From a virus: a stretch of 64,000 bases of DNA. Position numbers and translations under genes: made by a program. Under the pieces are notes generated by a model, which was not told the origin of the DNA, ran no database searches, and worked only from the letters and a program-made list of their open reading frames with translations. The first letter of the stretch is position 1. Each line of letters begins with the position of its first letter. Below, piece by piece: positions 2,388 through 38,220 of this stretch. The stretch lies in UHGV virus genome UHGV-0214148, one strand, 5' to 3'.

Positions 2388-2831
2388 TTAAATCATACCT
2401 GGGAATTCGAAATCGATTTTATCTAAAAGTTTGTAGTCGTCTTTTAGTTGAAGCATTAGTGTATTCTTAAACAGTTCAAGTGAACCGATAAAGTAAGCCG
2501 TATAGCAGCTACCACGAACAGAAGAGGAAAGACCCAAGTCTCTTAAACACTGTTTCAAGATTTCATGTTCTTCAGCGGTACCGAAAAGTTGGAAATTGAT
2601 AACGGTAATCTGTTTATTAATGATTGCCGATAACCATTCTTTAATTCTTCTCGTGGTTATACGTTCTTTGAAATCACTAGCTTCTGGCAACCAGGTAATG
2701 TGAACGAACGGTGCATCGTAATCCACGAGAACTTTTTGCTGCCAACGTACTTGCATCAAACCACGAATACGGTTTGCTAACGTTTCAGAATCACAAAGTA
2801 ACATAATGCCGTTAGTAGTATTTGGTTTCAT
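2388..2831 (-). CDS. hypothetical protein (147 aa)
   Basis: ORF track; 4-nt overlap with upstream gene. Confidence 0.75.
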   Translation of the reverse strand: MKPNTTNGIMLLCDSETLANRIRGLMQVRWQQKVLVDYDAPFVHITWLPEASDFKERITTRRIKEWLSAIINKQITVINFQLFGTAEEHEILKQCLRDLGLSSSVRGSCYTAYFIGSLELFKNTLMLQLKDDYKLLDKIDFEFPGMI

Positions 2832-3679
2832 AATTGCCCTTCCTTCTTAATGTAATCTTCAACCAACTTATCAAACACGATTTTTATTTTCTCGCGTTCA
2901 TCTTCATTCAATTCACCAGAACAGGTTAGCCCATTTATCTTTCCGTACCGTAATTCCAACACATATTTCAACCGATGACGTAAGGCTTGTTCAAAATGCG
3001 TCGGGATATAGATCGGTTCGAAGTTGTGTAATAAAGTAAAATTGTCTTCGGTGTGTTTAGGGGGTTCGAATTTTACTTTATCTAAGATAGTAAGCCAACG
3101 GTGTCTGTCGACTAACCGATCGTCCCAATAAACCGGTTTTGTCTTAGAGGGAGTAAGTGTGTTGTAGTTACTGGAATCAGAGACACGGAAATTTGCCGTG
3201 ACATAAGTCTTCGAGAGTAACGAGAGAAGACAAATCGTACCTTCTTCAGAGAAACTTAAACCCTCGTCGAGTACGTCTTTAGCTTTCTTGAAGTAGTCCT
3301 CAATATAGTCTTCAGCAATTGGTTGAATTTCTACCTCCATACAGCTAATTTGGGGCCCGTCTATCCGTAAAGGAATTTTTAGTTCAGCAATATATTGCCT
3401 ATCCGATGTATAAGCTCGCGTAATAATAGGGTACGTAACAGGCTTAGCTAAATGACGATATTCGCCATCGCTAATGACTGAGAGACGTCCAAAGCCATCT
3501 TTATTCGATTTTGAAAAACTGTAAAGGTCTTTTAGATACTCCAGATACTGGTCATCCGTCATTTCATCGGTATCAAATTCACGAATGTAAAGTTGATTAA
3601 AAGATCCCTTTGTTTGTTCGTAGTAATAACCAGGGTCCCTATTTGCTAGAATGTGCGGGAGATAATACGGGTGATACAT
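2828..3679 (-). CDS. hypothetical protein (283 aa)
   Basis: ORF with AAAGGAGG RBS; preceded by conserved promoter-like motif and a terminator. Confidence 0.85.
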   Translation of the reverse strand: MYHPYYLPHILANRDPGYYYEQTKGSFNQLYIREFDTDEMTDDQYLEYLKDLYSFSKSNKDGFGRLSVISDGEYRHLAKPVTYPIITRAYTSDRQYIAELKIPLRIDGPQISCMEVEIQPIAEDYIEDYFKKAKDVLDEGLSFSEEGTICLLSLLSKTYVTANFRVSDSSNYNTLTPSKTKPVYWDDRLVDRHRWLTILDKVKFEPPKHTEDNFTLLHNFEPIYIPTHFEQALRHRLKYVLELRYGKINGLTCSGELNEDEREKIKIVFDKLVEDYIKKEGQL

Positions 3680-3760: not shown

Positions 3761-3796
3761 TAAAAACCGTAGGATGGACTAAGTCCATCCTACGGT
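3750..3796 (-). terminator. intrinsic terminator after tailspike gene
   Basis: Hairpin CCGTAGGATGGACT-AA-GTCCATCCTACGG followed by T-run on minus strand. Confidence 0.7.
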
Positions 3797-3801
3797 TTAA
3801 A

Positions 3802-5922
3802 TTAAATAACTACCCAGCTTTTGCCATCGGAACCAATCTGCATTAGCGTAATACTTTCATTGGTCTCAATGGGTTTGGCAAGACCTTCCGTCCCACTCTT
3901 TGGAGTGATGAGAACGTTTGAGTTTTCCGGTTTAACGATGATCTTACCAGCCTTATTTGCCACGATCTGTATATTTCTACCCACACTATATTCTAGATCA
4001 GGAATAGTAAGTTGGCCGCCACGGTTGGTGGCTGGGAAATACACATAAGACGACACATCTTCCTCAGATAACACTATACCACCAGAATCACGATTGACCG
4101 AGATCTCAAACTTAGAAATATCGATATCGTAGGCAGTAACTTTCGTAATATCTGTCAGAACCAATTCGTTCAAATCGGTATTAGCTGGACTGTTCGCCAG
4201 ATCAAACGGAGTGCCATTCTTGCCGTCAAGCACAGGTGTGACTTTGATTTTATTGTCACCCGGATAAATGATTTCAAGCGTATGCCAGTTATTATCGTAT
4301 GCACCAAAAGTTCCTAATTGCGCATTCTGCTTTTTATGATGCATCAGATAAAGATTCGTAGCGTCGGTCTGTAAGAAAAAAGACATTAGGTACGGGTTCG
4401 TCTTAGCCACACCAGCGTCAGCAAGTGTAGTACCAGAAGGTAGGTCGGACGCGGAAATACGCCAATAAAGTCCTAATCCGAAACGATCTGCTGCTAAATC
4501 ACCTTTTAGTCTAAAAGTAACGGTCAGACGTCCACCGTAACGTATCATGTCCGCAGCAGTCGCCATTGACTTAGTTACATTCCAAGGTTTCATCGTTACA
4601 GCCTTTCTTAATTCGACGAAATGCCCGTTTCCATCCTCAGTTTTTTGCACGGTTACGTTACAATCAACGATATTGTTCCAACCTTGCCCTTTCAGGGAAC
4701 CATCTCCACGACGACCGTTATAACCAACAGACTCTACTAATGGGGTATAGCTTCTTACCACATTCATATTGTCTTTGGAGCTCTTAGTGTCGTTCTTCGT
4801 CAGGAACATTGCACCAATCGCTGTTCTTGATAATATCTCGGCAGCTATTCTCTCTGAGATAATACCGCGTCGTGCCCAAGAACTGAAATGACTATTCCTT
4901 TCTGCAGACGTCCAGTTATCAGAACTACGGGAGGCAGCACCGTAATAGGCAGCACCAGTGATATTAGGATCGTCAGTGGGATCATTAGTCGGAACATGTT
5001 GGCCATTATCGTCGTACATGAATGGAACAAAAAAGATATTTTTTTGTTCGTTGTTACGATAATTACCGTATATGGTTTCATATTGAGCAGGATATTTTTC
5101 CTTCCAATAATAGGTAGTGTCCCCACAGATCCATGGTACTTCGGCGGTGGCGTACTCGGGCATCTGAGAGAGATGGTCAGAGAGATCAGTTCGGAAACGC
5201 TCTACCATTGCGTTAAATAACGCTGGTTGTTGTGCGTATTGTACTTTAGTCAGATCATACTCTCCCTGCATCCACACTACAGCCAAGAGTTTATTTTTAG
5301 GATTAACTTCCAGGGCTTTTTTGGTCCGGCTAACTAAATCTTTATAAAGCGGTTTGTCCACCCCCCATACCGATGACGCCGCAGAGGCTCCTGTGGCTTC
5401 ATCGAAGGTACCTTCTGCACCACCCGTGAAAGCAGAACCGCCGCGTGCGCAGGGTACTAGTAAGATACCGGCGTTCTTAGGAATATACGGGAGAAGACGC
5501 TTCGCGATATGAAGACCTTGACCCACACATCCGTATTCACCTTTGTCTAAATTGGCATTGGGATGCGAGTATTTGGACATATCTTGCACGTCGTGCAGAC
5601 AGTGATCCGCTGGAATGACGTCGTTATATTTACAATCAGCCCCATTAGGCGTTACCTTCGCACGGCGCGCCATCTGTTTAATTCGCGGATCGGGAGCGTC
5701 CAACGTCGCCGGTAGAGGCAACCCTTCACCATAACTCATCGCATTAGATTGCCCGGCTATAGGAATCACGAAGTAATACTCCGGCTCCGTCGTGCCCTGA
5801 AGTTTTGCAATATCAATTTTATATTCTTTTTCTTCCTTAGAAAGAAGAACTAACGCACCTTTGAGATCGCCAGAGAAATTGTCGAGTTCATGGATACGTT
5901 TCTTTCCAATTGGCTGACTCAT
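3802..5922 (-). CDS. tailspike / tail fibre protein with carbohydrate esterase (SGNH/SASA-like, GQSN motif) domain
   Basis: N-terminal about 35 aa is similar to the N-terminus of the 1479-aa fibre (shared anchor domain). Motif IPIAGQSNAMSYGEG resembles the catalytic GQSNM block of sialate-O-acetylesterase-type SGNH hydrolases found in esterase tailspikes. Confidence 0.6.
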   Translation of the reverse strand: MSQPIGKKRIHELDNFSGDLKGALVLLSKEEKEYKIDIAKLQGTTEPEYYFVIPIAGQSNAMSYGEGLPLPATLDAPDPRIKQMARRAKVTPNGADCKYNDVIPADHCLHDVQDMSKYSHPNANLDKGEYGCVGQGLHIAKRLLPYIPKNAGILLVPCARGGSAFTGGAEGTFDEATGASAASSVWGVDKPLYKDLVSRTKKALEVNPKNKLLAVVWMQGEYDLTKVQYAQQPALFNAMVERFRTDLSDHLSQMPEYATAEVPWICGDTTYYWKEKYPAQYETIYGNYRNNEQKNIFFVPFMYDDNGQHVPTNDPTDDPNITGAAYYGAASRSSDNWTSAERNSHFSSWARRGIISERIAAEILSRTAIGAMFLTKNDTKSSKDNMNVVRSYTPLVESVGYNGRRGDGSLKGQGWNNIVDCNVTVQKTEDGNGHFVELRKAVTMKPWNVTKSMATAADMIRYGGRLTVTFRLKGDLAADRFGLGLYWRISASDLPSGTTLADAGVAKTNPYLMSFFLQTDATNLYLMHHKKQNAQLGTFGAYDNNWHTLEIIYPGDNKIKVTPVLDGKNGTPFDLANSPANTDLNELVLTDITKVTAYDIDISKFEISVNRDSGGIVLSEEDVSSYVYFPATNRGGQLTIPDLEYSVGRNIQIVANKAGKIIVKPENSNVLITPKSGTEGLAKPIETNESITLMQIGSDGKSWVVI

Positions 5923-5925
5923 CTA

Positions 5926-6438
5926 CTACTCTCCAAAAGTTAAGATTTTATTGTCAAACGTCAACACGACAGAATCATCACCGATGCCACACGGTGTTTC
6001 ATCTGGGCCGAAAACCACCACGGAGAACTGTCCTTTATAAGCGATGGAATTTGGAGCGATGCTAAGCGTTACCGCGTCTTTACCTACCGTGAACGACTGG
6101 TCGGTTAAATCGTCGGTTTGTAAGTTAGCACCACAAACGGCATTGACGGATTCGATAAGATCGTGTGCATTAAACCCTTCACCTATTACTTTTACCAGAA
6201 TAGGTTGTTGGTTTAACCACCGCTCTGCGGTTAAACGGTTGTAGTAGATTTGCAACGTTCTGTTTCCAGGACGTTTAATCTTTACAATGGCAGTGGAGTC
6301 ACGATCCATTTCATCACTGGTTTTTACGTCACTGACTTCAACCTCGTTCTCTTGCAAGTCAAGTTGGAGGTCATGGTTAACCAGTGAAATAACCATGTTA
6401 AGTGAAGTTAGTGATAAATCTGGTGTGAATTTTTCCAC
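5926..6438 (-). CDS. tail-fibre-associated protein, paralog of 12527..13087 (GTG start)
   Basis: GTG start with AGGAGG RBS; clear similarity to 12527..13087 (PDLSL...LVNHD..., YY.RL.A...L...PIL, N..D....VN..CG.NLQ..DL); sits immediately upstream of a fibre gene. Confidence 0.7.
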   Translation of the reverse strand: MEKFTPDLSLTSLNMVISLVNHDLQLDLQENEVEVSDVKTSDEMDRDSTAIVKIKRPGNRTLQIYYNRLTAERWLNQQPILVKVIGEGFNAHDLIESVNAVCGANLQTDDLTDQSFTVGKDAVTLSIAPNSIAYKGQFSVVVFGPDETPCGIGDDSVVLTFDNKILTFGE

Positions 6439-6492
6439 GTATGTTTACCTCCTAAGGTTGGGGGTCATAAAATATTGACTAAAAAACATTCA

Positions 6493-6501
6493 CCCCCCCC
6501 C
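6493..6501. repeat. homopolymeric C9 tract (G9 on coding strand), intergenic between adhesin paralog and fibre-associated gene
   Basis: Read directly from sequence. Confidence 0.95.
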
Positions 6502-6535
6502 ACGATTATTTTCAACCGCTTTCAGTTGAAAATAA

Positions 6536-6979
6536 TTAGCTAATTCTCAAATCACGCAGTGCGCCTGTCGATTTCATCGCGTTTTGGAACGCGCCACTGA
6601 TGTTATTAGTCCAGTAATAATGCTGTCCGTTAATAACCTGCTGATAGGTCAGTGCGCAGGTGTTACCACCTAAATTTACGGTAATGTTAGAGGCTCTGCC
6701 TCCTTGTAAGTAAACCGCTAAAGTAGGCTTTGCGTTGGCAACTATCGTCGTTAACTGTAACTCAATACCTACTAAAGTTCCCACCCCGCAGTTACCCGCG
6801 TTTTGAATGGTTCCCTGATTTTTCTGGTTTAACGGCCAGCTTGGTCCTACCGCGCCCCATTTCTTACCTAAAGAATCGCTATATGCAGCGGTTGCAATTT
6901 TACAGCCCATAGATCTTCCCACCATTTGACTCATCATAAAAGGTCTACCCAATCCTAATTTACTACCAGCAGCGCTCAT
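6536..6979 (-). CDS. gp38-like tail-fibre adhesin paralog; annotated from internal ATG, true start probably ATG at 7044 disrupted by G10 tract
   Basis: Paralog of 7298..7843. Upstream ATG (7044..7042) with AGGAG RBS is followed by G10 then TAA; one extra G restores a 22-aa extension MGGGVTGSWVGSSAKNETGEQW that matches the N-terminus of the paralog. Confidence 0.6.
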   Translation of the reverse strand: MSAAGSKLGLGRPFMMSQMVGRSMGCKIATAAYSDSLGKKWGAVGPSWPLNQKNQGTIQNAGNCGVGTLVGIELQLTTIVANAKPTLAVYLQGGRASNITVNLGGNTCALTYQQVINGQHYYWTNNISGAFQNAMKSTGALRDLRIS

Positions 6980-7032
6980 CCATTGTTCGCCCGTTTCGTT
7001 CTTAGCCGAAGAACCGACCCACGAACCGGTTA

Positions 7033-7042
7033 CCCCCCCCCC
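7033..7042. repeat. homopolymeric C10 tract (G10 on coding strand) immediately after an ATG with AGGAG RBS; frameshifts the adhesin paralog N-terminus
   Basis: Read directly; minus strand AGGAGatcgcgATG-G9-TAA. Confidence 0.95.
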
Positions 7043-7056
7043 ATCGCGATCTCCTG

Positions 7057-7287
7057 TTAAGATTTTCTACATGTTATTGAATCGAAAGCACCACGCCCAA
7101 CCCAACGCCAATTATAATGATGATCAGCTTTATAAAGTGTGTATCTGCCCTGCTTTTTTACGTCGAAAATATTGATCGTAGTCTCTTCATTACCCAGCTT
7201 AGCTGTGCCGTAACATACAGGTTCGGGTAGTTGTTGACATCCACTTACTGTAAGCAATGCGAAACCCAGTAAAACTTTTCTTAACAT
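7057..7287 (-). CDS. small lipoprotein (76 aa; signal peptide with lipobox LTVSGC)
   Basis: N-terminal MLRKVLLGFALLTVSGC is a typical signal peptidase II substrate; located between the two adhesin paralogs. Confidence 0.65.
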   Translation of the reverse strand: MLRKVLLGFALLTVSGCQQLPEPVCYGTAKLGNEETTINIFDVKKQGRYTLYKADHHYNWRWVGRGAFDSITCRKS

Positions 7288-7297
7288 CTTTCTGTCC

Positions 7298-7843
7298 TTA
7301 GACTACACTTATTGAAATTGTTGCACCGTTCTGATTAAATAACCAGTTGGTTGCCGTCTTAGCCTCATAGCGCCGGACGCCGTTACTGTAAGAGTACGGT
7401 AGAAAAGTAATCTTCGTTCCGTTAAACGAAAGCGTAATATTCTGATTTGGTCCATTAGTTAGGGCCATGTAGATAATACCAGTATTTTGTACTTGGCTAA
7501 GATGTGTGACGCTACAACCCAAGATCGAACCTGACACCGAACCGGCCGCATTTTGTGTTTGCACACGATTCGATACTGTAGAACCAGCACCCGTTGTTGT
7601 AGAGTTGTTCGAATACCCCCCATACGTATTTGTAATAGGAACCCACTGCGTGTTCGTAGCCTGCACCAAAACAACATAGGTTGATCGGCCTACAACGAGT
7701 TTAAGATCCTCTACGCTACGCCCGACCATCTGCGACATGTTAAATGGTGTGCTCAGTTTAAGCTTATTACCTGCCACACTCATCCACTCCTGACCGGTTA
7801 CTGCCTTTGCTGAGCTTCCAACCCAGCCGGATGCTACCCCCAT
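7298..7843 (-). CDS. gp38-like tail-fibre tip adhesin (181 aa)
   Basis: N-terminus MGVASGWVGSSAKAVTGQEWMSVAG...MSQMVGRS resembles, from memory, the conserved fibre-attachment N-terminus of T2-type gp38 adhesins; directly downstream of the long fibre gene, as in T-even 37-38 order. Confidence 0.55.
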   Translation of the reverse strand: MGVASGWVGSSAKAVTGQEWMSVAGNKLKLSTPFNMSQMVGRSVEDLKLVVGRSTYVVLVQATNTQWVPITNTYGGYSNNSTTTGAGSTVSNRVQTQNAAGSVSGSILGCSVTHLSQVQNTGIIYMALTNGPNQNITLSFNGTKITFLPYSYSNGVRRYEAKTATNWLFNQNGATISISVV

Positions 7844-7884
7844 AAATCCTCCAAACTAAAATAGGGGGATTACTCCCCCTATCT

Positions 7885-10800
7885 TTAATTCCCCTTGAGT
7901 TCTTTAAGCTCTTGGCGAAGAGTTTTCATGCCTTCTACTAACAACGCAATAACACCATTGTAATTTAGACGTAAACGTTTTTCGCCTGAAATGGCATCAT
8001 CATCCTCAGACACAAGCTCAGGTAACGCTTCTAGAGCGTCCTGAGCAATTAGACCTACAGAAGTCTGCCAGCCGTCGTCAGGATGCTGAATTTCGTACAA
8101 ATAACCGGTTAGTAACTCTAACCGATCCAAAGCCTTATCCAGCTTCACCAGATTACGTTTGTTACGACGGTCAGAACGAATCTGTACGTCGTTAAACGAA
8201 CCGTTACCGTTGCCAGTAACGTTATGTCCAAAGTTTACTTGGCCGTTAGAATTATTAAAAGACAACGGGCGTAATCCGTTCCAGGAACCCGCTGCGGCTT
8301 GTCCGGCGTCGGTTACTAAGAAATAGGTATTGGCACCGTCGTTACGTAAAATAAAACCGTAGGTACCGTAAGCGATTCGAAAATCAGGGTATTTAGTGGC
8401 CAATTTACCATTAACGGTTAAATCACCGCCTACAGTACCGCCCCCTGACGGTAACGCGCCCACTTCCGCAGCAGTTGGCTTGTTTCTCGTATTGTAAGCA
8501 CGACGCCAGCCTGGTGAGTATCCATCGCCGTTAAATACGTAGATAAACTCCGCATTAGTGAGTGCTCCGCCGACGCTCGTCGTTGTGGCGGTCGTTATAC
8601 GGATCGTGTAGTTGTTTGTGCTGTTGCCGTTACTAATGACTTCTATAACGGCCCCAGCTAACGGAATGACACCACAACCCGTCTCGCTGTGAGGTATGGA
8701 CGCACTGGCGGCATAAGCCCACGCACAGCGAGCAACCCACGATCTTGTGGTAAATGCGCCGTTATTTTTCAATAACGTCACTAGCTGTGCTGTAGTTATT
8801 GCACCGCCATTAGCGCCAGTTTCTAACCAACCACTAGGTGATGCCGGACAACCTATTTCGGCTGGCCCTAACGATATATTTCTAGTGCCATCAAACGCAA
8901 TACCATTGATGGTTCTTGCGGTTTGCAACTTTGTTGCCGTGGCTGCGTTTCCGGTGGTCGACTGATTCCCTGTTTGGTTTACTCCAGGTAAGTTGATGTC
9001 TTTAGTACCATCAAAAGCTACGCCACCTATATTTCGCGCAGTCTGGAGCTTAGTCGCAGTCGCAGCATTCCCCGTCGTCGATTGGTTACCGGTTTGGTTC
9101 ACACCGGGCAGACTAATGTCTTGCGAACCATCAAAGTTAATACCACCGATCTTACGTGGCGTTTGTAACTTAGTAGCGGTCGCTGCATTACCTGTCGTAT
9201 TCTGGTTACCTTGCTGGTTAACCCCCGGTAAATTGATATCCCCAGTACCGTCAAAGGTAACGCCCCCGATTCTGCGAGCAGTTTTCAGTTTCGTCGCGGT
9301 AGCAGCGTTACCAGTAGTATCTTGATTACCGGTGGTATTTACACCAGGAATACTATCACGGGCAGTATAAACTTGTGCCCAATCTGACCACGGCGCATCC
9401 GCTGTATCGCGTCGACTACGAATATAAACGGGTGCGTGCGCACCACTCGTGCCCGACCAACCGATTAACAGTTCACCTTCACCTAGCGCAGTAGAACCGC
9501 CCAAATGCAGCAAGTTACCATAAGCGGTCGGATAACCGTTATTGTAAACTTCGTACATCTGAATACCGGGTGTACCTTTGTTTGAACCGGTTAGTGCAGT
9601 AACCCGACCACGACCTACCAGGGTGTTGATATTGATGTCAGCAGAACCATCGAATCTCACACCGTTAATATTTCTGGCAGTTTGAAGTTTAGTGGCTGTC
9701 CCGGCATTACCCGTGGTGTTTTGATTACCCTGTTGGTTAACACCTGGGAGGTTAATATCAGCACTACCGTCGAAAGCGACTCCACCAATTCTACGTGCCG
9801 TCTTTAATTTCGTTGCGGTTGAAGCATTGCCTGTTAACTCGCCTGCTAACCCTTTTGCAAAGGTCTGTTTTTCTGCCCAGGTGTGTGCTGCATTCAATAC
9901 AGGCATCTGTCGTGGTGTAATCGTACGACTACCTTTCTCACCAGCGATACGTACTGCAAAGAATCGATAGTTGGCAGTAGACACCGTACTACGCCAAACC
10001 AACATACTCCGGCCTGATGTAGCGCCATCTGATGGACCAACCAGAATGCTAACTAAGTTACCGTCAATAACACCCCAATCCATTCCCGTAGGAATGTTTT
10101 TCATGGTGTTAAGCGGCGTACAGATTAACTCACCCGGTTTAAAGTCATAGGTTTGCCAGTCTAAAGGATCAACATTCGCACGTTCACCGCCGATACCTAA
10201 TACCAGCGGAAGCGAATACGATGTGAAAACCTCACGCCAATCGCTCCAAGCGTTACCCGTACGGATACGTTGGAATTTACGACCTTTAGTTTCTGTACCC
10301 GTACCGTATGTAGTATAATTCTGTTCGACCCCTGTACCGTCTAAGCGTAAGGTAACTTCACAAACGCCTAATATGGTTTCACCAGAAGAACCGGTAAGTG
10401 GACCGTTAGTTGCTTCACCAGTGACACTGAAACGTCCCGGTTTAACGAGATCGTTAAAATTGGCTTTAAAGAAAGCACCGTCAGTCTGATAACCAACCTG
10501 AATCCAATCTTCCCATTGCGGGTTTGATGAATCCCACGTTGCGGTCAAACCACGAACATACATCGTACCACGACGTGTGGTGTATCGCTGCAACCGTCCG
10601 AAAAGACCACCTTCCATTACTTCTAGTACGCCTTGCGCACCGCCACCTTCTTCAGGGTAATGTCTGCTAAAAACAGCCAGCGAACTGCTTGAGTTTCGCC
10701 AGTTACCCATATGCTCAGCGCCACCCAAACTGTTCAAGTCTATAGCGGTAGATAATGGACGTACACCAGTAGTTACCATTCTCCACGGCGACCAGGGTCC

Positions 10801-12324
10801 ATTGGCACCATTCCACTCGCCACTCAGCATACGGTTGTACACGTTACCATTACGACAGGTAAAACGCTGTGCACCACTGTAATTACCGGCTTTATACACT
10901 TCCAGATAACCGACTGCACCGTCTTCTGGGAAATGTTTTGCCATCGACGCATTGGTTGACGTCGACTTAGCCCACGTTCCTGTGTAATTGGCATCAGGAG
11001 CAAATGTGTTAATATCAGCATCTACAGGCATTTCGCCACGGAAACGTAGATAGGTGTCAGGAGACAGACCGATATTGCGAGCAAACGTTTCTTTATCTGG
11101 GATATCAGCGCCGTTAGAGTTTTTCTGTAACGCGCCATTCGCTTTATCTACAGTGGCTTTTAATCCCAAGAAATTGATGATATCCGCAGTTGACCCTTTC
11201 GCTAACAAGGATCTGGCCGTTTCTGTAAAATCCGTTAATCCGACTTTATTACTGCCAGTGAAATACATGAGTTTATTTGCCGCTGTGGTGACTGCGGCAA
11301 TGGCGGTGAGCAACGGACTGAGAGGTTGTTTCTGCGCAAGTTCCCCAGTAATCGTTGTTGCGAAGTTAGGGTCATTACCTAACGCCTCAGCTAATTCCGC
11401 TAAGGTATTTAACGTCTCGGGTGAAGAACCAACCAGTTCCGCAATCGCGTCACGCACCCAGGCCGTTGTGGAGATGCTCGTGTCGTTCGAGTCCTTCGGG
11501 GGTGTTGGGGATGACGGTTTACCCGTAAAATTCGGCGAATGTTTATTGGCTTTTAACTGTAATTCGTCATTCAGCTGTTTAACCGTGGACGGTGTGGCGG
11601 CCTCAGTCACGGATTCGCTAGTCAGTGTATCGTTAAGTTTAACGATACCTTTACCGGTCGTACTAGCGTCGATTAAGCCCTGCGCAGCGATTTTCTCCGC
11701 ACGTAAGGCAGCTGACTCCGAGCGTGTTGCTGCGCCTTCTGAACTTTCTTTATCTTTCGCGACCTGTGCAGCAATCTTCTCCACTGCGCCCTTACTGGCC
11801 TCAACTGAAGCCGCAGTATTCTCGACACCGGTAGCCGTCTGTTGGACTTGTCCGGCCTGTTGCGTAACCGTTTCTGCTTTCTTAGTTACATCAGCCGCTG
11901 CAGCCGTCACCGATTGTTCGCTTGTAGCGACAGCTTGAGCTTTCTCATTTACCGACTGTAATACAGTATCTACGGCAGTTTTCGCGGCTAAAACTTCAGC
12001 GTGTTTTTTGTTAACCTCAGCAGTTTTAGTGGCAACGGTTCCCGCTTGCTCGCTAACGGTGGAAGCTAACGTGTCAGTTTGTTGCTTCGCGGTTTCTGCT
12101 AAGTCTTTTGCTTGTGTGGCTTCTGTTGCAGACTGTTGTGATTTGGCCGCAGCCGTTTGTGCGTCAGCAACCGCGTTTCTGACGGTGTCAATATCCGCAA
12201 CAATCTCGCGGACAGGTAACTGATAATCCCTTTCGTCTTTCGAAAAAAGTAAAACGCCTTCACCGATATCCCCGGTGTATGGACGTAAATCGTGTAAACG
12301 AATTTTCTTTACCGCTTTAGCCAT
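7885..12324 (-). CDS. long tail fibre protein (1479 aa) with tandem fibre repeats and C-terminal intramolecular chaperone (peptidase S74-like) domain
   Basis: About 6 tandem repeats of the type TATKLQTAR-IGGV-FDG--DI-LPGVNQ-GNQ-TTGNAA; C-terminal ...SDRRNKRNLVKLDKALDRLELLTGYLYE... resembles the auto-cleaving chaperone domain of T5 pb1 and endosialidases; N-terminal coiled-coil and anchor region. Confidence 0.8.
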   Translation of the reverse strand: MAKAVKKIRLHDLRPYTGDIGEGVLLFSKDERDYQLPVREIVADIDTVRNAVADAQTAAAKSQQSATEATQAKDLAETAKQQTDTLASTVSEQAGTVATKTAEVNKKHAEVLAAKTAVDTVLQSVNEKAQAVATSEQSVTAAAADVTKKAETVTQQAGQVQQTATGVENTAASVEASKGAVEKIAAQVAKDKESSEGAATRSESAALRAEKIAAQGLIDASTTGKGIVKLNDTLTSESVTEAATPSTVKQLNDELQLKANKHSPNFTGKPSSPTPPKDSNDTSISTTAWVRDAIAELVGSSPETLNTLAELAEALGNDPNFATTITGELAQKQPLSPLLTAIAAVTTAANKLMYFTGSNKVGLTDFTETARSLLAKGSTADIINFLGLKATVDKANGALQKNSNGADIPDKETFARNIGLSPDTYLRFRGEMPVDADINTFAPDANYTGTWAKSTSTNASMAKHFPEDGAVGYLEVYKAGNYSGAQRFTCRNGNVYNRMLSGEWNGANGPWSPWRMVTTGVRPLSTAIDLNSLGGAEHMGNWRNSSSSLAVFSRHYPEEGGGAQGVLEVMEGGLFGRLQRYTTRRGTMYVRGLTATWDSSNPQWEDWIQVGYQTDGAFFKANFNDLVKPGRFSVTGEATNGPLTGSSGETILGVCEVTLRLDGTGVEQNYTTYGTGTETKGRKFQRIRTGNAWSDWREVFTSYSLPLVLGIGGERANVDPLDWQTYDFKPGELICTPLNTMKNIPTGMDWGVIDGNLVSILVGPSDGATSGRSMLVWRSTVSTANYRFFAVRIAGEKGSRTITPRQMPVLNAAHTWAEKQTFAKGLAGELTGNASTATKLKTARRIGGVAFDGSADINLPGVNQQGNQNTTGNAGTATKLQTARNINGVRFDGSADININTLVGRGRVTALTGSNKGTPGIQMYEVYNNGYPTAYGNLLHLGGSTALGEGELLIGWSGTSGAHAPVYIRSRRDTADAPWSDWAQVYTARDSIPGVNTTGNQDTTGNAATATKLKTARRIGGVTFDGTGDINLPGVNQQGNQNTTGNAATATKLQTPRKIGGINFDGSQDISLPGVNQTGNQSTTGNAATATKLQTARNIGGVAFDGTKDINLPGVNQTGNQSTTGNAATATKLQTARTINGIAFDGTRNISLGPAEIGCPASPSGWLETGANGGAITTAQLVTLLKNNGAFTTRSWVARCAWAYAASASIPHSETGCGVIPLAGAVIEVISNGNSTNNYTIRITTATTTSVGGALTNAEFIYVFNGDGYSPGWRRAYNTRNKPTAAEVGALPSGGGTVGGDLTVNGKLATKYPDFRIAYGTYGFILRNDGANTYFLVTDAGQAAAGSWNGLRPLSFNNSNGQVNFGHNVTGNGNGSFNDVQIRSDRRNKRNLVKLDKALDRLELLTGYLYEIQHPDDGWQTSVGLIAQDALEALPELVSEDDDAISGEKRLRLNYNGVIALLVEGMKTLRQELKELKGN
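8780..9850 (-). repeat. in-frame tandem coding repeats (~35 aa units) within the long tail fibre gene
   Basis: Repeated peptide motif visible in translation; also generates spurious antisense ORFs 8747..8965 and 8993..9325. Confidence 0.7.
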
Positions 12325-12526
12325 GATATTTAATTCTCTATCGGGAGCTAAAAGATCTGAGGAAGTGTTTTACCCCTCAACATTTTTATAAGCGGATTAT
12401 TATACTGGTTTTAATCCATCATCTTCTAACGTGAAAGTGATGCCCAACTCCGCGCTTCATGATTTGGGATTGTTAAGTTTTGATAAAAGTTTGCTTTGAC
12501 CTCCATTACCGGTAAAACGGTCAAGT

Positions 12527-13087
12527 TCATGTAGCCGGGTTTTCTTCAGCTGTGTCGTCATCTGGAACCTCAAAGGTAAGAACGGCATCATCACCAATAC
12601 AGAAGATCGCATCATCTTCGTTTGCTAATGCTCGTTCGGTTGTATCGAATAACGTTACCATAAACGCATTCATCCACGCAGGAGAATCGTCAGCAACGTT
12701 AACAGCAATGGGTTCGTTACCTAAGGTGATATCTGCAGCACGTAAATCTTCGGGTTGTAAGTTCGTTCCGCAGAATTCATTTACAACACCTAAAATGTCA
12801 CGAAGGTTGTCTTCAGTACCGTCTAACGAAATCAAAATAGGTTCAGACGCTAACACTTCGTCCGCATCCAAACGGTCGTAATAAACAACCACAGAAGCAC
12901 CATCAGGTTTCCTGATTTTTGTAATCTCTGTCAGTGTGTTACGACGCGAAGTGGTCGGGGACGGGTTTGCCATAGTGTTGCTAATACGGATTTCGTTTAG
13001 AGACAACCGTGAACCGTTATCGTGGTTGATTAAAGCGACCACTAATTCGGCTGAGGCCAGACTTAAATCAGGTACGTAAGTAGTCAC
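12527..13087 (-). CDS. tail-fibre-associated protein, paralog of 5926..6438 (GTG start at 13087)
   Basis: ORF track start at 13153 would translate a terminator hairpin; GTG at 13087 with GGGAGG RBS gives an N-terminus (MTTYVPDLSL) that aligns with the paralog's MEKFTPDLSL. Confidence 0.7.
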   Translation of the reverse strand: MTTYVPDLSLASAELVVALINHDNGSRLSLNEIRISNTMANPSPTTSRRNTLTEITKIRKPDGASVVVYYDRLDADEVLASEPILISLDGTEDNLRDILGVVNEFCGTNLQPEDLRAADITLGNEPIAVNVADDSPAWMNAFMVTLFDTTERALANEDDAIFCIGDDAVLTFEVPDDDTAEENPAT

Positions 13088-13100
13088 TAAAACCTCCCAG

Positions 13101-13145
13101 ATCAAAAAAATAAAAACACCTACCGCCCATAGAATCGGGCGGTAG
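13101..13145 (-). terminator. intrinsic terminator (hairpin CTACCGCCC...GGGCGGTAG + T-run)
   Basis: Stem-loop plus TTTTTATTTTTTT on minus strand; mistranslated as N-terminus in ORF track. Confidence 0.6.
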
Positions 13146-13173
13146 ACAGTCATTTTACAGCTAAAAAATCAAA

Positions 13174-13548
13174 TCAGTCCGTTAATTCTCCACACAACTC
13201 GACGTCAATACCGAACATCAATCCCACCTCTTGAAGCTTGTTCGCCAATAAGTGGCGATGACAAAACTTACCTGGCGGACAATAACACATCAAAACCAAA
13301 TCTTCGTGTCTAAGTAATGACACTAAAGTTTCGGCGTCGGTATCTAACAGTCGTTCGAGTTTGTACAAATACTTTATCGTGTACTCGCGTTCAGCAGCTG
13401 CATCCTTTGCAGAGTTTTTATACGCCATTAAGAAATCCCAGTCGGGGGCGAGTTCCTTTCGCCCCGACTTCACAGTGATATCCACTACGTGAAACCCTTT
13501 CTGCTTAGCTAACCGCCACTTAGCGAGTTGTAACGTCCAGATACGCAT
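13174..13548 (-). CDS. hypothetical protein, DUF488-like (C-x-C...C-H-R motif)
   Basis: Motif LVLMCYCPPGKFCHRHLLA matches from memory the conserved cysteine/CHR block of DUF488; not verified. Confidence 0.4.
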   Translation of the reverse strand: MRIWTLQLAKWRLAKQKGFHVVDITVKSGRKELAPDWDFLMAYKNSAKDAAAEREYTIKYLYKLERLLDTDAETLVSLLRHEDLVLMCYCPPGKFCHRHLLANKLQEVGLMFGIDVELCGELTD

Positions 13549-13745
13549 TAGGAACGAGTCTGCGATTCAGCCATCAACGCACAACTTTTCACAGCCTGTG
13601 CATGAAGCTCTGTACCAGGTGTGTAATCCTTTATACAATCCTGATACAATTCGCTTTTCTTTTCTAAAACACGATTGTCGCACTCGGCACTTGCTAGTGC
13701 CCCAGCGATAAGGATAAAAGCTACAATCGGTAACCAAATCTTCAT
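13548..13745 (-). CDS. small secreted protein (65 aa; cleavable signal peptide ALASA|E)
   Basis: Hydrophobic N-terminus with AxA site; periplasmic part paralogous to 13742..13969 (LY.-C...., .VK-C motifs). Confidence 0.55.
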   Translation of the reverse strand: MKIWLPIVAFILIAGALASAECDNRVLEKKSELYQDCIKDYTPGTELHAQAVKSCALMAESQTRS

Positions 13746-13969
13746 CGGCCATCTCCCATTAGTTTAGCATGTTCTGTGCACGCCTTTACCAATTCGCTGT
13801 AACGCGGATCGTCTACGGTCTTTCCTGACATACACTCACGATAAAGGCTTTCTTTGCGCGAGTCATCTGACACACGGACATAAAACATCAGCATCGTCAC
13901 AACCAGCACGGTTGAAACAATCGCTGAGATGATGTATCCATTAGCTCTTTTCATCGTATAAAACACCAT
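13742..13969 (-). CDS. small membrane-anchored protein (75 aa), paralog of 13548..13745
   Basis: N-terminal TM segment; ATGA overlap with neighbour. Confidence 0.55.
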   Translation of the reverse strand: MVFYTMKRANGYIISAIVSTVLVVTMLMFYVRVSDDSRKESLYRECMSGKTVDDPRYSELVKACTEHAKLMGDGR

Positions 13970-14472
13970 GGTTCTGGATAAAACCCTGTAAGTAAATCAA
14001 CGTAAAAACTATGTAAATTTGTTAGTGTTATAACGCACCCTAACAAATCATGCTCAGTATGGTGATAAATCACTACAGATGTTTCTGATACTCGTTTAAC
14101 ATGTATATGGCCCACGTCTTTAATGCTCTGATACAATCGTCCGAAATCGACCGTACCGACAGCATCAGATGAATCCGTAACCGAGTACCGTATACGTGGA
14201 GTCTCATTATTTACTAACGAAAGAAATTTCTCCACACTTTCAGCATGGATTTGTTCCATAAAGGATAAGTGTGGGAACACTTCTTTACGTAACGCGCTGC
14301 TTGAAATCTTAGCAAAAACCTGACGTTCCGTTAAGCGCATTAACTCGCCTAATCTTTTCAAGTCTTTGTTATAGTTCAGAAAAGCAACCACCTTTTCATC
14401 GTGCGTAATAGGCGGCCATTCGACCGCCTTTGCCCGACGTTGCTTAAACCAACTCGCGAGTCGCGCTATCAC
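13951..14472 (-). CDS. hypothetical protein (173 aa)
   Basis: ORF track; operon packing. Confidence 0.7.
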   Translation of the reverse strand: MIARLASWFKQRRAKAVEWPPITHDEKVVAFLNYNKDLKRLGELMRLTERQVFAKISSSALRKEVFPHLSFMEQIHAESVEKFLSLVNNETPRIRYSVTDSSDAVGTVDFGRLYQSIKDVGHIHVKRVSETSVVIYHHTEHDLLGCVITLTNLHSFYVDLLTGFYPEPWCFIR

Positions 14473-14474
14473 GC

Positions 14475-15167
14475 TTAGTAATCCTCTTCCTGATTCACTA
14501 CCGATTGGATACGGGATGCGACTTCGTTAGTGTCCAGGTCAGTTTCGTCTACCTTATCCACAAGTTTCTGTACTTTACGTACATGTGATTCGGTAATATC
14601 AAAACGACCACGATCGGCTAACAACAACGTTACCATGTCCTTACGTGTAACCATCAGTTCTTCTTCAGGTAAGTGTAAGGATTTGTCTAACAGACCCGAA
14701 TGCATGAAGTTTTCCAGTAAGCGTTCTTCCCCCTGGTCGAAATCATAACGTTCGTTAGGTGCAGCAACGAAAGCATAACCGAAGTAGTTTTCTTCCGTCT
14801 CACGTAGCGACTTGATGATTTTGTCACCGTGTTGACAGAAATCACTTAACGTGTAGTCGTCAAGCGTTGCCACGACGGTTTCTGCTTGCACACCATTATC
14901 TGTTTCGTACAGATGCGCAACCCACAGTTTCCAGTTACGTGGCTCGTCAAACAAACCACCGATTAACATATCGGTAGCCGCCATGCGCATACGCGGTGAC
15001 GTTGTAAACTGGAAACCACGACCTGCGTACGGACCGATAGGACGAATAGAGCTACCGACGAAAGTAATGCGGTTTAGCGCATTTTCAGCAATGGTGTGCG
15101 CAGTACGGTTAGCAGCGGCTTTCGGATTATACTTTTTGTTACGCGGTTTCTTTTGTTTGGTAGCCAT
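14475..15167 (-). CDS. hypothetical protein (230 aa)
   Basis: ORF track. Confidence 0.75.
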   Translation of the reverse strand: MATKQKKPRNKKYNPKAAANRTAHTIAENALNRITFVGSSIRPIGPYAGRGFQFTTSPRMRMAATDMLIGGLFDEPRNWKLWVAHLYETDNGVQAETVVATLDDYTLSDFCQHGDKIIKSLRETEENYFGYAFVAAPNERYDFDQGEERLLENFMHSGLLDKSLHLPEEELMVTRKDMVTLLLADRGRFDITESHVRKVQKLVDKVDETDLDTNEVASRIQSVVNQEEDY

Positions 15168-15649
15168 TATTTATTCTCAACTAATACTGTGTGAAATGCT
15201 TTGTAAAGAGCTTGACGTGTCTCAATTAACGCGGGACGATTAATCAAGCACATGTATCCAATTTTCCAAGACCAGTAAGAAGTGTCGTCGGTATTTAACC
15301 CGTAATCAGGTTCAAGATATACCAAATCCGTGTATGCATCTGGTATATAAAGACGACACAAACTAAGATTCCAGAAATTCGGTAAATCCGATTTTGCAAG
15401 TTCAGTCATAACCTGCATTGGAATCTGACTTCCAATAGCGTCTGTTGCAAAAACGATATGCAGATTTCCAGGTGACTTAGAATACATACCGTGACCTTCA
15501 CAACTCCACATTGTCGCCAAGTGTGGATGGTCGTTGATTAGCTTGCAGGTGTCACGAACACCTTTTTCAATATAGCCGTTTTTAACTGCAAACTGACTAC
15601 GCTCTTTAAATGATGCTAGTCTTTCTGCATCAACAGAAAATTGATTCAT
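15167..15649 (-). CDS. hypothetical protein (160 aa)
   Basis: ORF track; start overlaps upstream stop. Confidence 0.75.
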   Translation of the reverse strand: MNQFSVDAERLASFKERSQFAVKNGYIEKGVRDTCKLINDHPHLATMWSCEGHGMYSKSPGNLHIVFATDAIGSQIPMQVMTELAKSDLPNFWNLSLCRLYIPDAYTDLVYLEPDYGLNTDDTSYWSWKIGYMCLINRPALIETRQALYKAFHTVLVENK

Positions 15650-16110
15650 GTTGGGTTCTTCCCTAAAATTATCTCACGCATTTCCAGGTAGGTGTCAAAC
15701 GGCACCACGGTGTCTTTATAACGTAGCGTTACGTAGGTTACAAAATGTTGGGGTGCCAGGAAAGGACGTTTTGGTGACCCGTCGTGATTGTAATACTGCT
15801 TCGGACGATATTTGTTGAAAATGTCTTCCCGTGGGAATAATGATTTCTGAATAACCACTTCCCAACGGTGCGGCGTTTCCAAGAGCCCAATACGGATCAG
15901 CATACCATCTACCCACCGGCTCATGTTTTCGGTTAATACGAAACTGACGTGGTGATGTTGTACCTCTGCTAACGCGACTTCGGGTTCTTTATCCAGTCGC
16001 ATTAATACCGCAAACAGTGGGCGATAATCAGAATCGTACAAGTCACGGAAAGCAGTTTTCTCACGCTGTTTAAACAACTCAACAATTTCTTTAGATTCGA
16101 AGTAATTCAT
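15646..16110 (-). CDS. hypothetical protein (154 aa; start revised to ATG at 16110, ATGA overlap with upstream stop)
   Basis: ORF track start at 16152 would overlap upstream gene by 46 nt; ATG at 16110 gives classic ATGA coupling. Confidence 0.7.
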   Translation of the reverse strand: MNYFESKEIVELFKQREKTAFRDLYDSDYRPLFAVLMRLDKEPEVALAEVQHHHVSFVLTENMSRWVDGMLIRIGLLETPHRWEVVIQKSLFPREDIFNKYRPKQYYNHDGSPKRPFLAPQHFVTYVTLRYKDTVVPFDTYLEMREIILGKNPT

Positions 16111-31824: not shown

Positions 31825-32711
31825 CAGTTAGCTGTCCCCAGGAAGAACGGTGCAGGTTGTCCGATACGAATGGTCAAAGACAATTTGTCATTCGTCTGTG
31901 CCAGGTTGGTAAACATCGAAATATAGTACAGCGCTTGAACACCGATCGCCTCGTTATAGCTGAATTTAGACCCAGTTGCAGAGTCCCCGGACGCGACCTG
32001 GTCTAACCCTGAACAGAGTGCCAGTTCAGAGATAATTGAACTACGCGGGCTACCACGCATAATGCTCGTTACGTTCATATATTCCTGAACATCAAAGTCT
32101 GTCCACGGAATAACCAGGTCAGCACCCGATTCGACATAACGACCATCTGGAATTGCAACGGTACCATCGTCGTCGTAATCGTAGTCCGGCAATACCTTCG
32201 GTACGGGGTTTAATTCCGTGTCTGTGTACACAAAGTCTTCGACGGTCTCAACACCGTTCTCACGCCTGATATCGTAATCGGTGGTTTTTACAGCGCGCAT
32301 GTCGATGCGTTTTAAATAATACGCCCAGTATTCGCGTTTGTTAAACGTTTCCAAAGTACGAAAAGCGTAGTTCTTACGTTGTTCGTCAGACAGATCATTG
32401 TCTTTTGTACGCAGGACAAACGGAACGCGGGAAAACATCCCGGAAGCAATAGGTTCTTTACCTACAGGCACAACGTCAGCCACCACATCAGAGGTGTCGA
32501 CCATATGGCCACGGTTGCCAATTGCCATGTACTGCAAATGAGGACGCGCTTTACCGTCCGGCACTGGTGTTTGCATGAGTTTATAGAACTCATTCAGTGT
32601 GGATTTTTGCGGGTATTGCACGTCAGCACCGGTAATTAATGCGGTAGCCAAACGCATCGCATTAAGCGTTACCGTCGAGAGTTTACCGTCGTAAACTTTG
32701 ACATTAGACAT
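31824..32711 (-). CDS. hypothetical protein (295 aa)
   Basis: ORF track. Confidence 0.75.
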   Translation of the reverse strand: MSNVKVYDGKLSTVTLNAMRLATALITGADVQYPQKSTLNEFYKLMQTPVPDGKARPHLQYMAIGNRGHMVDTSDVVADVVPVGKEPIASGMFSRVPFVLRTKDNDLSDEQRKNYAFRTLETFNKREYWAYYLKRIDMRAVKTTDYDIRRENGVETVEDFVYTDTELNPVPKVLPDYDYDDDGTVAIPDGRYVESGADLVIPWTDFDVQEYMNVTSIMRGSPRSSIISELALCSGLDQVASGDSATGSKFSYNEAIGVQALYYISMFTNLAQTNDKLSLTIRIGQPAPFFLGTAN

Positions 32712-33231
32712 TGATTAATTCTCCTGGGCGGAACCCATCCAACGCTAATTTCGTCACAAGAGACGCCAATTTGCGTGGGGTGGAATCAGTAAATACGACC
32801 GGAATCGTTCCTTTAAAAGACAAATGATTCGGGACGAGACGAACATCATAAGAATCCAGCTCCTCTGAAATCGGCTCAATCATAATGTCGTCAGCACGCA
32901 GGTCAATCCCTGTTTGTGCAACGATATAATCAGCCAACTCCTCGCTGGACGTTACTGCGCCTTTCGGTACACTCACCGGTTCATCGGCCAGGAACGTTGC
33001 CAAATCAACGCGAGTTAAAATGAATTCCTGGTTACCGACAACGCCGTTACGGAAGACGGCAGCAACCTTTGATTCTAGTCCGTAACGTTGACGTTCTGCT
33101 AAAGTTAGTGGTTGAACGCCGTTTGCGTTAAACTCGATGTTATCAGCAGTATAGGATAGACTAAATACGTAGTTAATCCGGTCTACTAAAATTTGTTTAG
33201 GTGCTTTCGTTAAATCGACACGATATGCCAT
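32704..33231 (-). CDS. hypothetical protein (175 aa)
   Basis: ORF track. Confidence 0.75.
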   Translation of the reverse strand: MAYRVDLTKAPKQILVDRINYVFSLSYTADNIEFNANGVQPLTLAERQRYGLESKVAAVFRNGVVGNQEFILTRVDLATFLADEPVSVPKGAVTSSEELADYIVAQTGIDLRADDIMIEPISEELDSYDVRLVPNHLSFKGTIPVVFTDSTPRKLASLVTKLALDGFRPGELINV

Positions 33232-38154: not shown

Positions 38155-38220
38155 GCAAAAAAAAAATAATTCGAGCTTACTCCGACCCTTCTGGGGTCGG
38201 AGTGGCTTTTCTTTTTTTTT
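38155..38220. terminator. bidirectional intrinsic terminator between convergent genes
   Basis: A10-hairpin(CTCCGACCC...GGGTCGGAG)-T-rich run. Confidence 0.75.

Follow-up and report, generated by a model that had tools for sequence, protein, structure and literature searches.

A cluster of genes on the minus strand of the virus genome UHGV-0214148, running from position 13087 to position 3802 of the 64,000-nucleotide (nt) stretch analysed here (the window), appears to form a peripheral host-recognition module in which imported receptor-binding parts have been grafted onto one lineage-specific docking peptide. Two otherwise unrelated proteins, a long tail fibre and a predicted sialate O-acetylesterase, begin with this same peptide of about 41 amino acids (aa), and each is encoded directly after a gene of the DUF7941 family. 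Between them lie two genes for fibre-tip adhesins (gp38a and gp38b), the second of which is placed in or out of frame by a run of G at its second codon that varies in length across gut populations, and a gene for a Cor-type lipoprotein. All genes of the region are on the minus strand. To the model as a whole, with a docking peptide common to fibre and esterase, a fibre tip matured by an S74 chaperone, a poly-G-switched second adhesin and Cor, we assign a probability of about 0.6.

Judged by its relatives, the window is part of a Chimalliviridae jumbo phage of about 225 kb, kin of SPN3US and Asesino. The flanking 25 kb are 73–75% identical in DNA to the Erwinia phages Asesino and phiEaH2 and to SPN3US-like Salmonella phages, the window carries a PhiKZ-type major capsid gene (PhiKZ_MCP), and Seoulvirus and Erskinevirus are both genera of the Chimalliviridae; the phage is therefore of the nucleus-forming type. 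Near-identical contigs of 223–227 kb occur in many human gut metagenome assemblies. The nearest annotated records, about 84% identical, are circular 'plasmids' of about 222 kb: NZ_CP134650.1 from Enterobacter ludwigii (222,441 bp; hereafter L001) and NZ_CP173450.1 from the urine isolate Escherichia coli 98232 (221,873 bp; L026).

When the full fibre (1,479 aa) and esterase (706 aa) were compared by BLASTP, residues 1–41 of the two proteins aligned end to end (E 5.9e-6), which bears out the shared N-terminal anchor proposed in an initial annotation of this cluster. The peptide has the consensus M-x4-KK-x-R-L-H-E-L-D-x-F-T-G-D-x3-G-V-L-L-F-S-K-D-E-K-E-Y and is encoded at 12202–12324 in the fibre gene and at 5800–5922 in the esterase gene. 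A third copy stands at 12457–12561 in a 34-codon stub (MTTQLKKTRLHELDRFTGNGGQSKLLSKLNNPKS, then a stop codon) that overlaps the end of the upstream DUF7941 gene. Among 1.84 billion representatives, a profile built from these three copies matched 23 proteins at E ≤ 1e-3, and in 17 the match began at residue 1. The proteins that carry the peptide range from 53 to 1,494 aa and bring very different cargoes, among them gp123-like proteins of about 155 aa, proteins of 259–273 aa, one of 710 aa whose Ig-like matches are weak, the esterase and an S74 fibre. We read the shared N terminus as more than chance and as a portable handle for unrelated cargoes.

The genomic setting of the peptide points to a possible partner. 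A tblastn search of 2.3 Gb of phage genomes with the docking peptide of the esterase found only SPN3US-like phages, Asesino and related jumbo phages, plus one weak chance match, and in these the peptide always starts the gene right after a DUF7941 gene (in SPN3US, the DUF7941 match spans 105831–106337 and the peptide 106352–106480). An extension of the esterase match to aa 18 in this search was non-similar filler and not true homology. The order of a DUF7941 gene followed by a docking-peptide gene occurs twice in the window and also in SPN3US, Asesino, L001 and L026. In SPN3US, gp123 (16.5 kDa), which bears the peptide, and its neighbour gp124 (113.7 kDa) are found in wild-type virions and are not labelled 'Head' (PMC5694885, Suppl. 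Table 1). Taken together, the most likely partner of the docking peptide is the DUF7941 protein.

The initial annotation had placed a paralogous protein of 170–190 aa with a GTG start ahead of each anchored protein, and both members of this pair belong to DUF7941. DUF7941b (12527–13087, 186 aa, GTG start; Pfam 67.9 bits) precedes the fibre and is the ortholog of SPN3US gp122, sharing 45–46% identity with the SPN3US and Asesino orthologs; DUF7941a (5926–6438, 170 aa, GTG start with an AGGAGG Shine–Dalgarno sequence) precedes the esterase. The two are 34% identical (E 1e-32), and both matches exceed the Pfam cutoff. For DUF7941b, a longer open reading frame (ORF) of 208 aa with an ATG start (12527–13153) was rejected because it includes the 13-bp terminator hairpin at 13148–13117; orthologs and gene callers use the 186–187-aa form, and the GTG at 13087 is thus the right start. 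A DUF7941 profile matched phiKZ gp127 (PHIKZ127, PDB 9XQD; E 1e-7), making the N-terminal domain a homolog of that protein, and an AlphaFold2 (AF2) monomer showed a C-terminal tail of low confidence. In phiKZ, modelling places gp127 in the outer peripheral baseplate, where the gp139 band ends (PMC13250141). Virions of phage Goslar are reported to be rich in DUF7941 proteins, which assemble head to tail into filaments, and association with the peripheral baseplate has been proposed (Goslar 2026 preprint). Compared with phiKZ gp126 and gp127 and the Goslar 'fibre cloud' proteins gp22 and gp23, the window proteins are short (170–186 aa), have no cargo domain of their own and are encoded beside separate cargo proteins. 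A third DUF7941 paralog of the window (32704–33231, 175 aa) takes the position of the SPN3US head protein gp83 and has an SPN3US gp82-like 731-aa gene on one side and a DUF7208 gene on the other; in the related contig L021 it is called (13096–15813) as a single 905-aa fusion with the upstream gene.

The second cargo, the 706-aa protein (3802–5922), is by homology a close relative of the 9-O-acetyl-sialate esterases NanS and NanS-p and is predicted to share their activity. It matches the Pfam families SASA (46.5 bits) and DUF6645 (107.5 bits) and carries a GQSN motif at aa 57–60 (5743–5754), so that the SGNH-type esterase seen in the initial annotation stands. Its catalytic domain (aa 45–364; 4831–5790) matches E. 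coli NanS (3PT5, E 3e-122), with GQSN, WMQGE and SHFSS aligned identically. The lectin-like C-terminal domain of NanS-p follows (DUF6645, aa 400–610; 4093–4725; 6YP6, E 5.5e-38), and then a C-terminal extension of about 95 aa (aa 611–706; 3805–4092) that has no match in Pfam. These relationships favour a sialate esterase over the generic O-antigen or capsule deacetylase suggested earlier, which makes O-acetylated sialic acids the likely substrates, whether those of mucin or those of bacterial polysaccharides that bear sialic acid.

Homologs of the esterase that are about 50% identical were found in 347 phage records, almost all of them Shiga toxin (Stx) phages or related phages of E. coli and Shigella. 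Similarity to the NanS-p of BP-4795 begins at about aa 43, and identity to Stx-phage NanS-p is about 50% over aa 43–610; the docking peptide therefore replaces DUF1737 and the linker, and Pfam found no DUF1737 in the esterase even at E 10. We also considered the docking peptide as a DUF1737-like capsid-binding domain in its own right and rejected this, with no Pfam match even at E 10. The NanS-p of phi24B, gp84, decorates the capsid, to which it is held by its N-terminal DUF1737, and is autoprocessed (bioRxiv 10.64898/2026.04.10.717836). Like the Stx-phage NanS-p proteins (933W, BP-4795 and phi24B gp84; structures 3PT5 and 6YP6), the window protein combines a SASA domain with GQSN and DUF6645. 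Unlike them, it has the fibre docking peptide in place of DUF1737 and the extra C-terminal extension, and its gene lies in the fibre cluster of a virulent-type jumbo phage, not downstream of stx.

The long tail fibre (7885–12324, 1,479 aa; Pfam Phage_fiber_2, Gp34_trimer and Peptidase_S74) ends in the S74 chaperone named in the initial annotation. The Peptidase_S74 match scores 40.5 bits against a cutoff of 22 and covers aa 1384–1438 (8011–8175); the Gp34_trimer domain is encoded at 8260–8559. The S74 cleavage-site motif known from endosialidase and T5 pb1 has a Ser and a Lys five residues apart (S-D-x-x-x-K), and the fibre has S1384-D-R-R-N-K1389 at the start of the domain (8158–8175). The shaft is a mosaic, 57% identical to P1 S and 61% to P2 H over parts of its length. 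Towards the tip, identity is 46–49% to T6 and T2-like gp37, and aa 1339–1477 match S16 gp37 in the gp37–gp38 complex (6F45_A, E 1.3e-11). Four 40-aa repeats (LPGVNQxGNQxTTGNAATATKLQTARxIGGxxFDGxxDI; about 8600–9100, aa ~1080–1240) are visible only at the protein level, as Tandem Repeats Finder detected no DNA-level array in the fibre gene. Fibres of 1,439 aa with three repeats in two contigs (L003 and L012) indicate that the length of the shaft is polymorphic in the population. The tip resembles that of T2, T6 and S16 (gp37 with gp38, PDB 6F45) in its S74 domain with Ser and Lys, its S16-gp37-like end and the adhesin gene directly downstream. The window differs from these phages in that the fibre is one 1,479-aa chain with a chimallivirus docking peptide and has no gp34–36 proximal half, and in that two adhesin genes follow in tandem with a Cor gene between them.

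The first adhesin gene, gp38a (7298–7843, 181 aa), matches the full Gp38_N profile (72.7 bits) and PHROG 1121, and its first 48 residues match the attachment domain of S16 gp38 (6F45_D, E 9e-6), where the PDB match ends. The C-terminal domain is all-beta in an AF2 model that is confident only for aa 100–181. Profile searches thus recovered all three kinds of homology expected from the initial annotation (SGNH, S74 and gp38-like), the last of them in part: both adhesins have the Gp38_N attachment domain, but the classical glycine-rich C-terminal domain is absent, and neither the gp38a nor the gp38b sequence holds the glycine-rich motifs of the polyglycine-sandwich receptor-binding domain of classical gp38. 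In contrast to the gp38 of T2, T6 and S16, the window adhesins are short (167–181 aa, PHROG 1121), as in Stx podophages and phage-plasmids; DNA relatives of gp38a are the genes annotated 'tail fiber adhesin' in short-tailed Stx phages and in phage-plasmids of about 109 kb. gp38a and in-frame gp38b are about 70% identical in the attachment domain.

Between the two adhesin genes lies a 76-aa Cor-type lipoprotein gene (7057–7287) that the initial annotation had missed. Its product has a signal peptide with a lipobox, MLRKVLLGFALLTVSG before the cysteine (...LTVSG, then C), and in searches of Pfam, PHROG and PADLOC its sole match was PHROG 1119 (E 1.3e-25), with none in Pfam. It is 54% identical to a Cor-like protein on a 109-kb phage-plasmid contig that is ordered S74 fibre, Gp38_N adhesin, two small genes and Cor-like protein. 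The Cor proteins of phi80, T1 and N15 block the FhuA receptor. The window protein shares with them PHROG 1119, the lipoprotein signal and a location by fibre and adhesin genes, and differs in sitting in a jumbo phage.

The second adhesin gene, gp38b (6536–7044), begins with an ATG at 7044–7042 behind an AGGAG Shine–Dalgarno sequence and is interrupted in the window by poly-G tract 1 (7033–7042), a run of ten G that includes the G of the ATG. With nine G after the ATG, translation stops after MGGG, and we call this state OFF. The initial annotation had described an intact 147-aa gene here; that ORF (6536–6979) matches Gp38_N positions 21–40 only, whereas in-frame alleles match the full domain. 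Upstream of the ORF the sequence reads AGGAGATCGCG-ATG-GGGGGGGGG-TAACCGGTTCG..., and the homolog on plasmid p09EL50 reads ATGGGGGTAACATCG and encodes MGVTSGWVGSSAKNETGEQWMSAAG...; homologs keep the ancestral ATGGGGGTA. Four, seven or ten G after the ATG restore the frame, and seven or ten give an adhesin of 168–169 aa. The claim of two gp38-like adhesin paralogs therefore holds for the Gp38_N domains, and having two adhesins is a conditional rather than a fixed state. A 135-bp segment of the 5' part of gp38b (6887–7021) is 96% identical to E. coli and Shigella phage-plasmids of about 109 kb (p09EL50, CMS-2020a) and 87% identical to adhesin genes of O104:H4-type Stx2a phages, which points to recent exchange of the attachment-domain segment.

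The length of tract 1 was compared in the window and in ten metagenome contigs with an identical gp38a, aligned over 880 bp. Mean identity was 99%, and indels occurred only in two G-runs. After the ATG, six G were present in one genome (L008), seven in one (L003), eight in two (L009 and L010), nine in five (the window, L004, L005, L007 and L011) and ten in two (L006 and L012), so that gp38b was in frame (ON) in 3 of the 11. Independent gene calls agreed: the contigs with 7 or 10 G, and no others, received a call for a Gp38_N protein of 168 or 169 aa, and the rest a truncated one of 124 aa. Of 72 contigs in a protein collection, 54 had the truncated call and 18 an in-frame form (12 and 6 for the two in-frame forms of this sublineage). 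In-frame (MGGV...) and out-of-frame forms exist in a second sublineage as well, and other lineages keep an unexpanded MGV.... In the ON frame, the variable codons of gp38b comprised 8 synonymous and 3 replacement changes, with no further disruption (11 sites only, some of them linked). Tract 1 is the sole homopolymer of at least 8 nt inside coding sequence in the window. Most simply, tract 1 can be read as a homopolymer switch that turns an alternative tip adhesin ON or OFF, with length changes that would arise within a lineage.

Only three G/C runs of at least 7 nt exist in the window; two flank gp38b and one lies at 1511–1519. Tract 2 (6493–6501), nine G with a 14-bp hairpin before it, stands between gp38b and DUF7941a. 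It expanded from the G5 seen in L001; relatives have 9–11 G, and in L011 the run is interrupted (GAG10). The RNA around it folds stably (z -3.2), and the G-run is predicted to pair with CCCCC at 6452–6456, near the ribosome-binding site of DUF7941a. A 14-codon upstream ORF (6441–6485; MFFSQYFMTPNLRR) follows tract 2, and its stop codon overlaps the same ribosome-binding site. The third run (1511–1519) is 9 nt long, poly-C on the coding strand and intergenic, about 28 nt ahead of the ribosome-binding site of a 171-aa gene; it measures 8–10 nt in one haplotype, and the other haplotype has no run (CACACCACC).

Hypermutable polyG tracts occur in the Campylobacter phages of the genus Fletchervirus (Sorensen 2021, Cell Rep 35:109214, as cited in PMC10877375), and homopolymer tracts in genes of T2 and T4 act as contingency loci (PMC12633550). 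Tract 1 resembles both in being an in-frame homopolymer that is polymorphic in length, with in-frame and out-of-frame alleles. It differs in its place, codons 2–4 of an enterobacterial chimallivirus gene for a second, alternative tip adhesin, and in coming from natural gut-metagenome populations, known from assemblies, and not from laboratory lineages. The other familiar tail-fibre switches are invertible segments, the G segment of Mu (Gin) and the C segment of P1 (Cin), and P1 S shares sequence with the shaft of the window fibre. The outcome would be alike, a population with alternative fibre-tip specificities, but the window has neither an invertase nor inverted repeats, and slippage would add a second adhesin where inversion swaps one.

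In the model that we favour, the docking peptide would hold its two cargoes, fibre and esterase, at the tail periphery, most likely through the DUF7941 paralog encoded directly ahead of each. The fibre would fold with its S74 chaperone, and cleavage at Ser1384 would expose a gp37 tip of T2/T6/S16 type to which one Gp38_N adhesin could bind. gp38a, which is always encoded, and gp38b, encoded only with 4, 7 or 10 G, would compete for this tip. Because replication slippage alters the run length, progeny would mix virions with gp38a only and virions with both adhesins, a bet-hedging host-range switch; we infer dual receptor specificity, as did the initial annotation, in this conditional form. A swap of the N terminus would have transferred the esterase from the capsid to the tail, where it would deacetylate sialic acids on mucus or on bacterial surface polysaccharide. 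Cor would have come with the gp38a cassette and, made in infected cells, would block the entry receptor.

Several observations weigh against this model. The esterase, gp38b and both DUF7941 proteins are known in this phage from their genes and not from virion proteomics, so that their place in the virion is a prediction. Mass spectrometry of wild-type SPN3US virions did not detect gp122, the ortholog of DUF7941b, and the third paralog of the window takes the position of a head protein; DUF7941 is therefore the most likely docking partner and not a demonstrated one. The two closest relatives, L001 and L026, have no anchored gene after DUF7941a, and one-to-one pairing is therefore not universal: the pairing of accessory and anchored proteins proposed in the initial annotation holds in the window, in SPN3US and in Asesino but breaks down for the second DUF7941 gene of these relatives. 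The idea that the docking peptide mimics a DUF7941 linker or tail was dropped at a profile–profile probability of 0.2%. For the C-terminal domain of gp38a, a Foldseek search of the PDB returned nothing below E 0.03 (TM 0.24). The test for selection on gp38b draws on only 11 variable codons, some of them linked. Control runs of A10 and T10 at a bidirectional terminator vary much as tract 1 does, from 6 to 10 and from 8 to 10 nt, so that instability of length (or some short-read assembly noise) goes with long runs in general; tract 1 stands out by its location, not by its variability. gp38b is ON in 3 of 11 genomes and on 18 of 72 contigs, near the one third that run lengths free of selection would give, and these fractions show no sign of selection for either state. 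The terminator with the variable A and T tails (38157–38221) has its hairpin loop inverted in L015 and L024 (CCCCAGAAGGG versus CCCTTCTGGGG).

The proposed docking of cargoes can be challenged at either partner. The fibre-adjacent DUF7941 proteins might be non-virion, chaperone-like factors of assembly or attachment, or might belong, unrelated to docking, to the large 'paralog family B' of SPN3US, in which the other members are head proteins; the failure to detect gp122 in SPN3US virions and the third paralog at the gp83 position would both fit. We take this seriously but doubt it, because phiKZ gp127, a homolog in sequence and fold, is modelled in the outer peripheral baseplate, DUF7941 proteins are plentiful, filament-forming components of Goslar virions, and SPN3US, Asesino, L001 and L026 all keep an anchor-bearing gene behind a DUF7941 gene. 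At the other partner, the 706-aa esterase might act as a soluble or released enzyme during or after lysis, the role proposed at first for the NanS-p of Stx phages, with its N-terminal likeness to the fibre serving co-assembly or regulation. NanS-p enzymes have long been seen as conversion or fitness factors, the catalytic part of the autoprocessed phi24B gp84 leaves the capsid, and the esterase of this phage is known from its gene. A released enzyme is nonetheless quite improbable, since DUF1737 has been replaced precisely by a peptide found otherwise only at the N termini of fibre and tail cargo proteins, that peptide heads a tail-associated virion protein in SPN3US, and the gene lies inside the terminator-bounded fibre cluster, directly after a DUF7941 gene.

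The poly-G switch has its own competitors. gp38b may be a residual cassette that is decaying into a pseudogene, with run-length differences that reflect neutral slippage or assembly noise in a phage that works on gp38a alone. It is OFF in the window and in about 70–75% of the sampled genomes, near the unselected two thirds, the A10 and T10 runs elsewhere vary alike, and so do the two further, intergenic G/C runs. Against decay stand the frame past the run, intact in all 11 genomes, the excess of synonymous over replacement codons (8 to 3), the intact Shine–Dalgarno sequence, the run-less intact orthologs in related phages and phage-plasmids, the in-frame forms in two sublineages and the absence of long homopolymers from the rest of the coding sequence of the window; on balance we consider decay unlikely. 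A different objection accepts a working gene and holds that genomes that look OFF still make gp38b by slippage of RNA polymerase or ribosomes, so that the G-run would set a dose and not a binary state. Transcriptional slippage on homopolymers of at least 9 nt is established in bacteria and viruses, and a run at codons 2–4 makes the out-of-frame products tiny (MGGG and a stop). Efficient slippage is known mostly for runs of A or T, however, and we think such dosing very improbable. The ON/OFF switch of an alternative tip adhesin remains our preferred account of tract 1.

Comparison with relatives suggests how the cluster was assembled. In SPN3US (gp122–gp123–gp124) and Asesino (gp139–gp140–gp141), a DUF7941 gene is followed by a gene for a small anchor protein with the docking peptide and then by one for a tail protein of about 1,000 aa. 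L001 and L026 keep this unit and continue with a long fibre, a classical glycine-rich gp38 (261 or 238 aa), a gp38b-like adhesin of 170 aa and DUF7941a; both are without the esterase and without Cor. The window shares with the SPN3US and Asesino modules the DUF7941 gene followed by a docking-peptide gene. In contrast to them, it has the peptide fused directly to the long fibre and to the esterase, has the unit twice and keeps the gp123-like gene only as the 34-codon stub. The stub aligns with the N termini of an L001 153-aa protein, SPN3US gp123 and Asesino gp140 and is, by this alignment, a remnant of the ancestral gene for a gp123-like small anchor protein; no gp124-like gene for a protein of about 1,000 aa was found in the window cluster. 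The window lineage would thus have lost the small anchor protein and the ~1,000-aa protein by deletion, leaving the stub, swapped the classical gp38 for gp38a and Cor, gained the anchored esterase and a 283-aa gene after DUF7941a, and expanded the G-runs.

The module is bounded on both sides by intrinsic terminators. One with a 13-bp stem and a T-run (13117–13148) ends the upstream unit and marks the upstream boundary, and a strong one with a 16-bp stem (3764–3798) lies directly after the stop codon of the esterase and marks the downstream boundary. A short GC hairpin 3' of the fibre gene (7863–7879; GGGGGAGTAATCCCCCT) is possibly a weak terminator or attenuator. A scan for sigma-70 promoters gave 10 sites compared with 14.8 in shuffled sequences; it carries no information where, as here, the phage has RNA polymerases of its own. 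The gene next to the cluster on its upstream side (13174–13548) encodes a DUF488-N3a protein, which is conserved at this position in SPN3US and weakly matches two PADLOC candidate-defence models. Directly past the esterase terminator lies the 283-aa gene (2828–3679), present in the window lineage and not in L001 or L026, which also have no esterase; it may have arrived together with the esterase. This gene and a 147-aa gene, both downstream of the esterase, had no match in searches of Pfam, PHROG and PADLOC.

The phage and its relatives also turn up outside metagenomes. Isolate assemblies of Shigella flexneri and Salmonella, with contigs of 223–226 kb, hold proteins identical or nearly identical to those of the window. 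The repeated deposition of such jumbo-phage relatives as circular 'plasmids' or whole contigs from cultured isolates suggests pseudolysogeny or a stable carrier state. Scans of IMG/VR and JGI metagenomes for further tract alleles gave no matches; the phage is represented in ENA/Logan assemblies only.

Each part of the cluster is of a known kind: the S74 fibre, the Gp38_N adhesin, NanS-p, Cor, DUF7941 and phage homopolymer contingency loci. New are the combination of these parts in a chimallivirus, the use of one short N-terminal peptide as a common handle for unrelated cargoes, the apparent retargeting of a NanS-p by a swap of its docking domain, and a G-run at codon 2 of an alternative tip adhesin that is polymorphic in the population. 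A bolder and more tentative version, which we hold at somewhat below even odds, is that a nucleus-forming gut jumbo phage uses the poly-G at codon 2 of gp38b as a natural host-range contingency switch, with ON and OFF alleles coexisting across gut populations, that it displays an esterase on its tail through a 41-aa peptide able to plug any cargo into a DUF7941 peripheral baseplate, and that two nearby G/C runs could tune neighbouring modules.

The cluster suggests how chimalliviruses attach their host-recognition proteins, a part of the virion that is only starting to be resolved by cryo-electron microscopy (cryo-EM). The docking rule, a 41-aa peptide that usually lies beside a DUF7941 gene and carries very different cargoes, could be used to engineer the host range of jumbo phages. 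The esterase would be a clear example of retargeting from capsid to tail by a docking-domain swap alone, and it bears on how gut phages handle mucus and sialylated bacterial surfaces. The G-run of gp38b would provide a case from natural populations for repeat-driven ON/OFF switching of a receptor-binding protein in an Enterobacteria phage, a mode of switching so far shown in Campylobacter phages and, in the laboratory, in T-even phages. As the phage recurs in many human gut metagenomes, this switch could be followed in existing read data.

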